A stretch of DNA of 63,965 nt, counting the filler, from Malassezia furfur (Eukaryota): the NCBI GenBank assembly GCA_052055015.1. It is 4 parts of 4 records of this genome, joined end to end, with 100 filler letters (N's around TTAATTAATTAA, not from the genome) between each part and the next. Parts side by side here need not be neighbours in the genome. Positions count along the whole stretch, not along the records: positions 33,520 to 50,067 come from JBQJIT010000245.1; 3 more parts are not named here. The stretch is one strand, 5' to 3'. Of this stretch, positions 13,862 through 50,067 are shown in pieces (positions within the stretch are counted from its first letter, which is position 1; the number at the start of each line of letters is the position of its first letter). The notes beneath the pieces are model-generated. The model did not search any database and was not told the DNA's origin. It was given only the letters and a program-made list of their open reading frames with translations. Both the position numbers and the translations under genes were made by a program.

Positions 13862-13928
13862 AAAAACATAATTGTCTCTTACGAGACACTCTTCTCTGAT
13901 CATGATTGTCATCCTTACTGCAGGGACC

Positions 13929-13959
<31 letters not shown>

Positions 13960-13983
13960 TTCGTATGCTACCCGAAGGTGCAC
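13862..13983 (-). ncRNA. SNR6: U6 spliceosomal snRNA
   Basis: Minus strand reads GUGCACCUUCGGGUAGCAU (5' UUCG stem-loop), then AAAUUGGAACGAUACAGAGAAGAUUAGCAUGGUCCCUGCAGUAAGGAUGAC (ACAGAGA box, AGC triad, ISL), and ends in an oligo-U Pol III terminator. Confidence 0.97.
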
Positions 13984-43118: not shown

Positions 43119-43670
43119 TCAGTCATGCCCCGCGTCGCGCTGGAACATGTATTCGGCGCGCACCGCGGCTTGCGACGGGTCCGACAAGGGGTAGTCGATA
43201 CGGGTCACCTGCCCCTCACGCAGGAGCAGCGTGCATCGCTGCAGCACCTGCATCCCGCCGTCTTCGCGCATGGGCAGCTCGAGCTTATCGCTGAACTCGC
43301 GCTTGGCATCACTCAGGAGCGGGAAGGGCAGGCCAAGTGTTGCGTGGATGCGCGACTGGCAGGTGGGCGAGTACGTGCTGAGCCCAAATACGAGCAGGTC
43401 GGGCTCCCACTTTTTCAGGGTATCCATGTGTTCCTTGACCGACAACAGCTGCAGGGTGCTGGGCTGCGTCGGGCCGCAGTCCACCTCCTCGCCCTGCGCA
43501 GTGATGCGTGTCGGGAATGAAAAGGCACACAGCAGCACGGGGCGGCTGAGCGATAGCATAAAGAGGTCGATCTGCGGCTGCGCTGCGTCGGTGCTATGCA
43601 GCATGGTCACAGCCGGGAGCGGGTGCCCCGGCAGGTGGAATACGGCCATGTCCTTTTCGACCGCATGCAT
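43119..43670 (-). CDS. Peroxiredoxin/BCP-like redoxin-fold protein, probably catalytically degenerate; snoRNA host gene
   Basis: HLPGHPLP..VFGLST..LGLPFPLLSD..LQRCTLLLREGQV..YP redoxin-fold motifs. The GCT-x-Q motif reads PSTLQ. Confidence 0.75.
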   Translation of the reverse strand: MHAVEKDMAVFHLPGHPLPAVTMLHSTDAAQPQIDLFMLSLSRPVLLCAFSFPTRITAQGEEVDCGPTQPSTLQLLSVKEHMDTLKKWEPDLLVFGLSTYSPTCQSRIHATLGLPFPLLSDAKREFSDKLELPMREDGGMQVLQRCTLLLREGQVTRIDYPLSDPSQAAVRAEYMFQRDAGHD

Positions 43671-43704
43671 CTCTGGCGGTCAGTACCTGTTTGCTTCGGA
43701 TGTC

Positions 43705-43794
43705 CGGCCACTCAGGACAATAACGCATTTTTGGTCGCCCACCACCTTTCGGTGTGTCGCTTCGAGTCTGTTGAAATGCTCATCATGGTGGCCG
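43705..43794 (-). ncRNA. Box C/D snoRNA, snR68-like (25S rRNA Am guide), intronic
   Basis: Terminal stem CGGCCAC/GUGGCCG, box C AUGAUGA (43786-43780), box D CUGA (43715-43712). Guide UGCGUUAUUGU is complementary to the LSU segment AC(A/G)AUAACGCA. Confidence 0.85.
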
Positions 43795-43834
43795 TAGCAT
43801 ACATACCTAGCGGTCAGCACTGTGGCAGGTTGTG

Positions 43835-43925
43835 TGGGCGCGTTCAGGAGTCCTATGTGCAATCATGGACGAATCTCAGTGGATTGACAGATTGATTTAC
43901 GAAGGAAGTTCATCCTTCGCGCCCA
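43835..43925 (-). ncRNA. Box C/D snoRNA guiding 18S rRNA Um (SNORD110-like site), intronic
   Basis: Terminal stem UGGGCGCG/CGCGCCCA and box C AGGAUGA. A 15-nt guide UCAAUCUGUCAAUCC is perfectly antisense to the conserved 18S GGAUUGACAGAUUGA. D' CUGA, C' AUGAUU and D CUGA follow. Confidence 0.9.
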
Positions 43926-43987
43926 TTTTCCAACGTACCGATCGAAGTAGGAGGCACCCTGCTTACCTAACCCGCGAAGGTCTCACC

Positions 43988-46900
43988 ATGGACGAATGGC
44001 CGCAGCTGGCCGCCGGGCTCGTGGACGGCACGGTGCCGCCTTTGGTGGACATCCCGCCCGAGCTCCAGGTGCAGGACGAGCCGCAAGATACCTTGCCCTC
44101 GGCACCGCGTGCGACGATCTGGGCGAACCTGGCGCTGAGCGAACAGACTGCGCCACGCCCTCCGCCCACGTCGGGTGTCGGTGAGCGGCTCGTGCAGCAC
44201 GTTGCGGGCCGGTTCACGGACCGCGCAACACAGGCCCACATTCTGCAAGGGCTACGCGATGCCTTGGGACGCAGCGATGCCGAGCGCGCGGCCGAGGACC
44301 TGGCCGAGCTGCTGGGTCTCGACGAGCTTGAGCTCGTGACCAGCGTCATGAGTGACCGTGGCGCGGCCCTCGCCGCAGTGGACCGTGAGCTGGCGCAACG
44401 CGCCGCGGGCGTGGGCTCGAGCGCCGATCCACTTCAGCTTGCGCCGGCGACCGAAGAGGAGCAATACCCCAATGTGTTTGCGAGCGGCGAGCAGAACCGT
44501 GTTGTGACAGCAGGCGGTTCGCGCTTTGCGCTGCCGATGGGCACGACGCGTGTACATGAGTCGTACTACGAGGAGGTCACTGTGCCGCCCAGCAAGCCGC
44601 TGCCCTTTCGCGCGACGGAGCGCCTTGTGCCGCTGTCCGAAATGGACACGCTGTGCCAAGGCGCTTTTCGTTCGTACGAGAGCCTGAACCGGTTGCAGAG
44701 CGCCGTATACCCTGTCGCGTATCAGTCGAACGAGAACATGCTGGTGTGTGCACCGACGGGTGCAGGTAAAACGGACGTCGCGATGCTCTCGGTGCTGCGC
44801 TGCATTTCGCGCTACTCCACCGTGCAAGGCTCCAAAATCCATGTGGACCGCGACGCGTTCAAGATTGTGTACGTGGCGCCGATGAAGGCGCTCGTATCCG
44901 AGATTGTTGCCAAGTTCTCCAAGCGGCTGCAGTACCTTGGGATCCGTGTGCGCGAGCTGACGGGTGATATGCAGCTCACGCGCCGCGAGATTGCCGAGAC
45001 GCAGATGATCGTCACCACGCCCGAAAAGTGGGATGTGGTGACGCGCCGGCCGGTGGGCGATGGCGAGTTGGCACTGTCTGTGCGCCTGCTGATCATTGAC
45101 GAGGTGCATCTCCTGCACGAGGACCGTGGTGCGGTGATTGAGACGATTGTCGCACGGACGCAGCGCCTCGTCGAGTCGGCGCAGACCATGATCCGCATCG
45201 TGGGCCTGAGCGCGACGCTGCCCAACTACGTGGACGTGGCCGACTTCCTTGGCGTGAACCGGTGGCGCGGCCTGTTCTACTTTGGATCATCGTTCCGCCC
45301 CGTGCCGCTCGAGCAGCACTTTGTGGGCGTGCGCGGCAAAAATGGGTCGGCGCTCGCGCGTGGACATCTGGACCGTGTGGTGTACGAAAAGGTGCTGGCC
45401 TTGGCCGAGCAGCGGCATCCTGTGATGGTGTTTGTGCATACCCGTAAAGATACCGTCAAGACCGCACAGGCATTGCTCGAGCTCGGCAAGGAGGACGGCC
45501 TGAGTGGGCTGCTCACCGACGACCGCGAGGACACGCGCTTTGACCGCGACATGGCGGCGAGCCGCAACCGCGAGCTGCGCGAGCTGTACGACCACGGGAT
45601 CGGTATCCACCATGCGGGGATGCTGCGCAGTGACCGTGACCTCGCGGAGCGCACGTTTGCGGCCGGTGCGACGCGCGTGCTGTGCTGTACGGCGACGCTG
45701 GCGTGGGGTGTCAACCTGCCTGCGTACGCGGTCATTATCAAGGGCACCGACGTGTACAATGCCGAGGCGGGCAAGTTTGTCGACCTGGGCATCCTCGACG
45801 TGCTGCAGATTTTCGGTCGTGCAGGCCGTCCGCAGTACGAGGACGTGGGTGTGGGCTACATCTGCACAGCGGGTGAAAAAGTGCCGCACTACATCGAGGC
45901 GATCACCTCGTCGCACCCGATCGAGTCGCGCTTCCTGAGCGGCATCGTGGATGCGCTCAACGCCGAGGTCGCCCTCGGCTCCGTGTCGAGCGTTGCGGAC
46001 GGTGTGTCGTGGCTGGGCTTCACCTACCTGTACACGCGCCTGAACAAGGCGCCGCTCGTGTACGGCATCGACCTCGCCGACCTTGCCGCGGACCCGTCGC
46101 TGACGACGCGGCGCGAGCACTGGATCACGAACGCGGCGCGCATTTTGGTCGAGCACGAGATGGTGGTGATGGACGCCGGCGGGCGGCTGCACACGACGCC
46201 CGTGGGCCGCATCGCGTCGCGCTACTACCTGCACTACAAGACGGTCGGCATCTTCCAAGAGCGCCTGCGCAACAACCTGCGCGAGGCGGACGCGCTCGAC
46301 CTCATGAGCCGCGCGACCGACTTTTCGCAGATCGCCATGCGCGACAGCGAGGAGGCCGAACTCGACGCGCTCCTCGACCGCGTGCCGTGCGAGGTGCCGG
46401 GCGGCGCCAAGACGCAGCAGGGCAAGGTGAACATCCTGCTGCAGGCGCACATTTCGAACCTGTACGTGGACGACTTTGCGCTGGTGAGCGACATGCGGTA
46501 CATTGCCCAGAACGCCGGGCGCATCTTGCAGTCGCTCTTTGATCTCGCGCTCGACCGCGGGTACGCGACTGCGGCGTTTGCGTTCCTGAGCCTCGCCAAG
46601 GCCGTCGAGCACCGCATCTGGCCGTACGAGCACCCGCTCCGCCAGATGACCACGCTGCACCGCGACGTGCTGCACAAAGTGACGCAGTACGCCGACGAGC
46701 TCGAGGTCGCGCAGATCCGCGCGCTATCGCTGCCGGACCTGGCCGGCGTGCTGCACACCAACGAGCGCACCGCGGCCGCCGTGCACGACGCCGCGTCGCA
46801 ATTCCCGCAGCTCGACCTCGCGGTGCGCATCCGCCCGCGCCCGGATGGGCACGTGCGCCTCCTCATCGACGTCACGCAGGCGTTCGTGTGGAGCGAGCGC

Positions 46901-48961: not shown

Positions 48962-50012
48962 TTACAACACGGGCAGGTCGAGCACCTCGGCGACAAACAC
49001 GCGGAGCAGCTTGGCCCACGCATGCACCACCGCATAGTCCAGTGCCGATGCATCGTCGCTGAGCCGGTGCCACACGCTCGGGAACGGCAAGGGGATCAGG
49101 TGCAAAATCGGCACGCCCTCGGCGAGGAACGGCAGGTGGTCGTCGCCGATGCCCGACGGCCCGCGCCGCGGATCCAGCATCGGCATGCGCTTCTGGGTGT
49201 CGCCGCGCGGGTACAGCAGCTGCAGGGACGCAAGGCGCGCCTCGATGTCCTGCAGCCGCGTGTGCATCCACTTGGTATCTGGGAAATAGTAGGGCACGCG
49301 TGGATTCGGCGCGCCGAGCAAGTCGAGCAGCACAAAGTGCTCCATCTTTTGGATCGCGCGCATCGCACGCCCGCGCCCCGTCATGTGCCGCGCCAGCAGC
49401 GTCTGGTTCGGCACGACCCAGGTTTGTGCCAGCATCTGCGCGAGCTGCCGCGCACCGTACACCGAGTCGGTCGCCGTCCACACTTGGAAGGCTTCCTCGC
49501 CGTCGAAGAAGACGAGCTGCAGCGTCGTGTCGTTGCTGCCATCCGCGTGGGGGTGTGCGGCACGCCACTGCGCCTGCTGCGCGACGTGCGCGTCGAGCTG
49601 CGCATCGAGCGCCAGTGCGACGTCGACCAGCATCGCGCACGGGGCGGCGCTGTCGGTCGCGCCGACAAACGCCTCGAGCGGCCCGGGCGGGAAGTATTTG
49701 GAGTCGTAGTGTGCAGCGAGCACGAGGTGCCGCGATGCGTGCGGATCGCGCGTCGCGACAATGTTGGTCATCCGACGCACGCCCAGCGGCGTCTGGGCGT
49801 CAAAGGTCTGTGTCTCGATGTGCCACTTGCTTTGTCCATGTGCGTCCTTGGGCGCGGAAAGCGCCTCGATCAGCGCGTTGCGCACGCGCGTGCTGTTCTC
49901 TGTGCCGGCGACGCGCGGGATGAGGATGCGCGCGAGCAGCGAATCGGCGTTGCGATAGTCCAGGACCGGCGCGGGGTCCGGCGCGACGAGCGCCGCAACG
50001 GCCGCGTCGCTG
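48962..50012 (-). CDS. Glutaminyl-peptide cyclotransferase (M28), 5' end truncated
   Basis: LAAHYDSK, GATDSAAPC, FFDGEEAF, DSVYGAR, LLDLLG, DDHLPF, PFPSVWH. Confidence 0.93.
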
Positions 50013-50067
50013 AGCGGCGTCTGGGCGTCAAAGGTCTGTGTCTCGATGTGCCACTTGCTTTGTCCAT
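50013..50067. repeat. 55-nt exact direct duplication of 49785-49839 at the contig end (likely assembly artefact)
   Basis: agcggcgtctgggcgtcaaagg...tttgtccat occurs at both positions; the second copy abuts the N gap. Confidence 0.85.

Follow-up and report, generated by a model that had tools for sequence, protein, structure and literature searches.

We analysed a window of 63,965 nucleotides of Malassezia furfur DNA (GC content 66%), in which two divergent genes are separated by a gap of 317 nt that is filled by two small nucleolar RNAs (snoRNAs) of the box C/D type. On the plus strand, a Brr2/Slh1-type DEAD/DEAH helicase with a Sec63 domain is encoded by a 1655-codon frame starting at 43988. 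On the minus strand, a 183-codon frame (43670-43119) encodes an AhpC/TSA-like (redoxin) protein, which shares 80% identity along its entire length with a 183-amino-acid protein of Malassezia obtusa; eight other named Malassezia species gave weaker matches. Its Pfam AhpC-TSA score, 25.6 bits, lies just below the cut-off of 26. According to a review (PMC7426719), genes in the compact genomes of Malassezia lie close together and have very short introns. Elsewhere in the window, a full-length U6 snRNA, which Rfam RF00026 matches over model positions 1-105 with 77.8 bits, lies at 13877-13981 on the minus strand; nothing else in the window reaches an Rfam gathering threshold, and no interrupting intron was seen in the U6 sequence. 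ARAGORN found no tRNA in the window.

Read on the minus strand, the gap holds a pair of complete intron-like units, 132 and 134 nt long and together 266 bases from 43938 to 43673, and the acceptor of the first immediately adjoins the donor of the second (Table 1). The two layouts are parallel: 12-13 nt separate the donor from the terminal stem of the snoRNA, the snoRNA spans 90-91 nt, 17-21 nt lead from the snoRNA to CTGAC, and 11 nt lead from the branch to the acceptor. In both units the D box ends 26-28 nt before CTGAC, the branch A lying about 30-32 nt downstream. A sequence-only reading of this DNA had proposed two C/D snoRNA introns placed back to back around a zero-nucleotide exon, about six times as long as the local norm, with a D box about 30 nt before each branch site and an alternative first donor GTAAGC at 43966. 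Direct reading of the minus strand recovered this arrangement at the same positions, the distance from D box to branch A and the alternative donor included, and the length ratio came out at 5-6, since the commonest lengths of local intron-like patterns are 22 and 26 nt. We counted 39 such short patterns (20-29 nt) in the window, whereas 20 shuffles gave 7.05 on average; their consensus is GT(A/G)(C/T)GT ... CTGAC-N2-5-CAG. Both long units carry signals of this form, apart from the first acceptor, which is TAG where nearly all local short introns have CAG. A second donor-like hexamer, GTATGC, lies at 43802, 4 nt downstream of GTATGT. In the window, the CAG of the second unit is followed by AG (43672-43671) and then by ATG, whereas in the related loci described below CAG directly precedes ATG; a weaker acceptor, GAG, lies two bases downstream of the CAG and would abut the start codon, as in these relatives.

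A chance origin of this layout was considered and rejected on the basis of a C/D scan and a motif simulation. The scan of the whole 64-kb window returned three candidates, of which the two described here were the only strong ones; the third (49910-50021, plus strand) lies in GC-rich helicase coding sequence, has a 5-bp stem and was judged spurious. The compound motif CTRAY-N2-8-YAG/GTRYGT, in which the slash marks the splice junction, occurs once in the window, at this locus, against a mean of 0.04 per simulated window, and at least one copy arose in 8 of 200 simulations. The 9-mer YAGGTRYGT alone is not significant: its 6 copies compare with an expectation of 2.83, and 6 were reached in 8 of 100 shuffles.

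Table 1. Features of the two snoRNA introns and of their junction, with the junctions of related loci (positions of the window unless a locus is named; slashes mark splice junctions).
Feature	Position	Strand	Sequence and basis
Putative non-coding first exon, 3' part	43939..43987	minus	Suggested by the layout; TCCTAC motif upstream of the donor in common with L057
5' splice site of intron 1	43933..43938	minus	GTACGT; commonest local donor; invariant in the window, L057, L106 and L108
snoRNA1, box C/D, snR55/SNORD110 type	43835..43925	minus	Boxes, stem, Rfam guide alignment, recurrence of guide and D'
snoRNA1 boxes	C 43916-43910; D' 43879-43876; C' 43866-43861; D 43847-43844	minus	C AGGATGA; D' CTGA; C' ATGATT; D CTGA
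Intron 1 branch and 3' splice site	43807..43817	minus	CTGAC 43817-43813 (branch A 43814), TAG ending at 43807; fits local CTGAC-N2-5-YAG; branch/YAG pair in the same place in relatives
5' splice site of intron 2	43801..43806	minus	GTATGT; abuts the TAG of intron 1 (zero-length exon); kept in L057, L106 and L108
snoRNA2, box C/D	43705..43794	minus	Boxes, stem, conservation in L057, L106 and L108
snoRNA2 elements	C 43786-43780; internal element 43760-43737; 13-nt D guide 43728-43716; D 43715-43712	minus	C ATGATGA; D CTGA
Intron 2 branch and 3' splice site	43673..43683	minus	CTGAC 43683-43679 (branch A 43680), CAG ending at 43673; equivalent intron of relatives ends CAG/ATG
Last exon	43119..43672	minus	AG, ATG at 43670, then the 183-codon AhpC/TSA-like frame; reading frame and protein comparison
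Junction, window	43801..43817	minus	CTGACCGCTAG/GTATGT; internal exon 0 nt; intron 2 ends CAG/AG-ATG
Junction, L057 and L106	L057 1926-1917	minus	GCTAACATCCACAG/G/GTATGT; internal exon 1 nt (G); intron 2 ends CAG/ATG
Junction, L108	L108 229-219	minus	CTTACACTGCAG/CG/GTATGT; internal exon 2 nt (CG); intron 2 ends CAG/ATG

The upstream snoRNA, snoRNA1, has the boxes of a C/D snoRNA and an 8-bp terminal stem, in which TGGGCGCG pairs with CGCGCCCA; in relatives the stem is kept with other sequence (CAAAG..GC pairing with GC..CTTTG). Its C box has one mismatch to RUGAUGA, and the GAUGA core is invariant in the relatives. A 15-nt guide (43895-43881) is followed by one base and then by the D' box. 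The Rfam family SNORD110 (clan CL00076) aligns to the guide/D' region and the boxes only, with 16.8 bits (E=1.9) against a gathering threshold of 64. As an exact pattern, the guide together with D' was found at no fewer than 110 eukaryotic loci of a metagenome collection, and 87 of the 110 listed are C/D-like, with a C-box-like motif 5-40 nt upstream and CTGA or ATGA 20-90 nt downstream. Four matches on contigs of bacterial MAGs (prokaryote contigs) have no C/D features and were taken as chance. From its boxes and the recurrence of its guide, snoRNA1 appears to belong to the widespread snR55/SNORD110-type family, of which it would be the local member. Its D' guide would direct the methylation of a conserved uridine of 18S rRNA, a target that we take partly from the family's general assignment and partly from a table for Neurospora crassa. 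In that table, snR55 (plant snoR34, human U33) is intronic and carries a D' guide for 18S-Um1265 (PMC2780460).

The downstream snoRNA, snoRNA2, combines a perfect C box with a D box and a 7-bp terminal stem (CGGCCAC pairing with GTGGCCG; GGTGGC with GCCATC in relatives), and both the boxes and the element adjacent to D are conserved. Between the window and L108, the 13-nt element and the D box do not differ at all, and L057 departs from them at one base. A 24-nt internal element (GCGACRCACCGAAAGGTGRTGGGC) has hardly changed between the window, L057, L106 and L108; degenerate D' (CCGA) and C' boxes may lie within it, or it may form a small hairpin with a GAAA loop. This element had no match in viral contigs, and no Rfam family matched snoRNA2 at E<=10. 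When the elements of both snoRNAs were compared with the U6 snRNA of the window, the longest helix was 7-8 bp including G-U pairs, and no target was found there. With one mismatch allowed, the D guide and the internal element of snoRNA2 occur downstream of snoRNA1 at 3 of the 110 listed loci, about 30 of which have only 300 nt of flank, and all three are Malassezia-like. An identity with snR61 was considered and not assigned, there being no Rfam match and the guide being absent beside snR55 at the 107 listed loci that are not Malassezia-like (about 30 with 300 nt of flank). So far, among the matches listed, snoRNA2 thus looks like a partner seen only in Malassezia-like contigs.

We then compared the junction with three related loci from two distinct relatives, L057 and L106 being near-identical and L108 a 619-nt fragment; two of the three are short fragments. 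L057 is syntenic, with an AhpC-like protein 45% identical over 157 residues and a helicase 64.6% identical over 604 residues, and it is the only one of the 110 listed loci that also encodes both neighbouring proteins. In all three, GTACGT, a branch/YAG pair, GTATGT and a second branch/YAG pair follow in the same order, while the spacers cannot be aligned. The blocks conserved in a three-way alignment are GTACGT, the boxes and guide of snoRNA1, the C-box core of snoRNA2, its 24-nt internal element, and its 13-nt element with the D box. The AG/GT contact itself, whose conservation in relatives had been named beforehand as a test that could refute the sequence-only reading, is not among them: the junction reads CAG/G/GTATGT in L057 and L106, with an exon of 1 nt, and CAG/CG/GTATGT in L108, with an exon of 2 nt. 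What is conserved, as far as these alignments tell, is the pair of separate introns, and the zero length would be one state of a micro-exon drifting between 0 and 2 nt. The comparison thus speaks against selection for zero length, which is not visible here, and would leave two introns standing. Because the internal branch and acceptor and, within 0-2 nt of them, GTATGT were kept while their surroundings diverged, both internal signals are probably used, giving two introns and one snoRNA per lariat.

We consider it likely, from sequence comparison, that in its 5' untranslated leader, the Malassezia AhpC/TSA-like gene carries two spliceosomal introns side by side, which make up the 266 bases and each contain one box C/D snoRNA; the splicing itself, the two lariats, the accumulation of the snoRNAs and their rRNA targets are what we infer from this layout. 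The leader would be transcribed from a start upstream of 43938, and two splicing reactions would share the junction between 43807 and 43806, formally a zero-length exon spliced recursively. The former exon between the introns would have shrunk to nothing here and to 1-2 nt in the relatives. If intron 1 is removed first, the product ...TCGATCG/GTATGT would re-form a 5' splice site; removal of intron 2 first would give ...CGCTAG/AGATG, with the TAG acceptor intact. The order of splicing is predicted to be free because both introns are complete, and either order would yield the same mRNA and two separate lariats. Debranching of the lariat followed by trimming is an established pathway for intronic snoRNAs, and each lariat would here be debranched and then trimmed by exonucleases to the snoRNP. 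A single lariat of 266 nt would need an extra endonuclease cut between the snoRNAs. Of the ordered recursive splicing proposed from the sequence at the outset, the separate lariat for each snoRNA therefore retains its force, as the two conserved sets of splice signals argue for two introns with one snoRNA each; the order does not, being unnecessary when both introns are complete.

The weakest point of an intron model at this locus is the first exon. Since only 49 nt (43939-43987), in which ATG is absent, separate the first donor from the helicase start codon, exon 1 and its promoter have to be very short unless they overlap the helicase gene. Transcription may start further upstream, antisense within the helicase gene. 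The transcripts of the snoRNA leader and of the helicase must either have a minimal bidirectional region in common or overlap head to head (43939-43990). The first donor lies 49 nt from the helicase start in the window; in L057 the distance is about 118 nt, in L108 about 243 nt. A coding first exon, starting at the minus-strand ATG at 43989-43987 and followed by GTGAGA, was considered and rejected, as it is out of frame with the open reading frame once spliced to AGATG.

The tightness of this gap bears on a reading without any splicing, in which an independent transcription unit carries the two snoRNAs, the splice-like motifs are incidental and the redoxin-like gene starts downstream. A normal first exon is indeed hard to place within 49 nt, and independently transcribed snoRNA clusters are described in budding yeast (PMC5033589). 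Such a unit would nevertheless have to account for four splice signals in the right order and spacing, conserved in three related loci, and for a compound motif expected 0.04 times per window; moreover, the second intron of the relatives ends CAG/ATG, which leaves no room for a separate promoter and leader of the coding gene. We regard this reading as very improbable. The relatives also weigh on the choice of the second donor. The sequence GTATGTATGC consists of two overlapping donor-like hexamers, so that the introns could flank a 4-nt micro-exon GTAT if the second donor were GTATGC at 43802 rather than GTATGT at 43806. Donors of the form GTNNGC do occur among the local short introns, and the relatives themselves have exons of 1-2 nt; GTATGT, by contrast, is conserved in all three relatives, which do not have the second GTATGC, and it fits the local consensus better, making a 4-nt exon very unlikely in our view.

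The rival that leaves the final mRNA identical is a single intron of 266 nt, running from the donor at 43938 to the acceptor at 43673 (branch 43680), with the internal TAG/GTATGT silent and the two snoRNAs separated by an endonuclease and exonucleases. This is compatible with the sequence, and in budding yeast polycistronic snoRNA precursors are indeed cut by an RNase III enzyme. An unused internal junction is, however, not expected to be preserved, and here the branch/YAG pair and GTATGT were kept in three related loci despite an unalignable spacer and shifts of 0-2 nt; in addition, equivalent internal sites are reported to be used in Candida and in Schizosaccharomyces pombe. We therefore think a single intron unlikely, and the presence of two introns, one for each snoRNA, appears well supported by the comparison of related loci.

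Similar junctions were seen at unrelated fungal loci beside an snR55-type intron. The exon is 0 nt at L033 (CAG/GTATGT), 1 nt at L084, 2 nt at L067 and L092, and 4 nt at L107; at L064, TAG/GTATGT was recognised by eye, again with zero length. L033 and L064 are related ascomycete-like contigs in which YAG/GTATGT lies about 80 nt upstream of the snR55-type guide, directly before the intron. Their zero-length exon looks like an independent case, and no clear C/D snoRNA was seen in the upstream part of these two loci. As micro-exons of 0-4 nt occur at several unrelated loci, vanishing exons beside this snoRNA would seem to be common. Across fungal lineages, the snR55-type snoRNA lies in the leader or first intron of differing protein-coding genes: the host looks like an RNA polymerase subunit gene at the GC-rich loci L015 and L061, and it is another gene at the ascomycete-like loci L029, L033, L064, L067 and L092. 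Such differing hosts are consistent with mobile snoRNA introns.

If confirmed at the RNA level, the locus would extend the recursive splicing of snoRNA introns to Malassezia and to a protein-coding host, and would provide a compact model of 266 nt with natural variants of 0, 1 and 2 nt. With such a model, one could ask how a spliceosome tuned to introns of 20-30 nt handles abutting sites, and whether one snoRNA per lariat is enforced. The case is also of practical use to annotation, since gene callers will miss the leader, both snoRNAs and the zero-length exon. More speculatively, the locus could offer a natural 0/1/2-nt series of a vanishing exon between two snoRNA introns in a coding-gene leader, in a genus where the spliceosome ordinarily deals with introns of about 22-26 nt. 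Selection could then have favoured the zero state as an end point at which the leader is erased and each lariat still holds one snoRNA; separately, snoRNA2, with its 24-nt element, could be a guide specific to the lineage, with an unusual target or a role in extra pairing. We hold this larger picture to be possible but rather doubtful.

The mechanism as such is not new, since experiments in S. pombe and Cryptococcus have demonstrated it, and it is also described for Candida and Debaryomyces. The novelty implied by the sequence-only reading is thus much reduced, recursive zero-length exons between snoRNA introns having been published for Candida and Debaryomyces (PMC5033589) and for S. pombe (10.1101/226894). 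In the Candida clade, snoRNA clusters are described as undergoing classical, nested and recursive splicing; the cluster snR57-snR55-snR61, which contains the family of snoRNA1, has a single-base exon, and one of its pathways involves an "exon size of zero" (PMC5033589). The exon between snR41 and snR70 of Debaryomyces hansenii is given as zero by Donovan et al. 2016, citing Luo et al. 2013 (PMC5033589); in the portion of the text of Luo et al. available to us (PMC3596301), where exon sizes are given in a figure, the words "zero" and "recursive" are absent. The clusters of the Candida parapsilosis group and Debaryomyces resemble the Malassezia locus in having one C/D snoRNA per intron, a separation of 0 or 1 base and several orders leading to the same product (PMC5033589). 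They differ in their hosts, which are non-coding, polycistronic and ascomycete, whereas here the introns lie in a protein-coding 5' leader of a basidiomycete with introns of 20-30 nt. As for fungal snoRNA cluster II (snR57-snR55-snR61) itself, the window holds no third C/D snoRNA and no snR57, the partner is not recognisably snR61, and the host is protein-coding.

In S. pombe, the snoRNA61 host SPNCRNA.445 has a zero-length exon, revealed by spliceosome profiling and conserved in other Schizosaccharomyces (Chen et al., 10.1101/226894). As in Malassezia, a 3' splice site lies directly beside a 5' splice site inside a snoRNA host; in contrast, the S. pombe intron measures 336 nt, belongs to a non-coding RNA and was shown experimentally to be removed recursively, while the Malassezia locus is known from sequence alone (10.1101/226894). 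In Cryptococcus neoformans, a 375-nt intron of BOT1 is removed as 210 + 165 nt around a zero-nucleotide exon, and junctions and branches were detected for each of the two introns (Burke et al., 10.1101/224170). That organism is also a basidiomycete, but the intron lies in a protein-coding region, and a snoRNA is not mentioned in the available part of the report (10.1101/224170). In the accessible portion of the literature on Malassezia snoRNA introns or zero-length exons, we found no published description of the present locus. Junctions of a related kind are the ratchet points of Drosophila and mammals, where AG/GT regenerates a 5' splice site after the first step, as is predicted for the Malassezia junction. 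Animal ratchet points, however, subdivide introns of tens to hundreds of kilobases in a forced 5'-to-3' order, whereas the Malassezia locus has two complete small introns that would work in either order. The reason for having two introns here is likely to be the production of one snoRNA per lariat, and not intron length.
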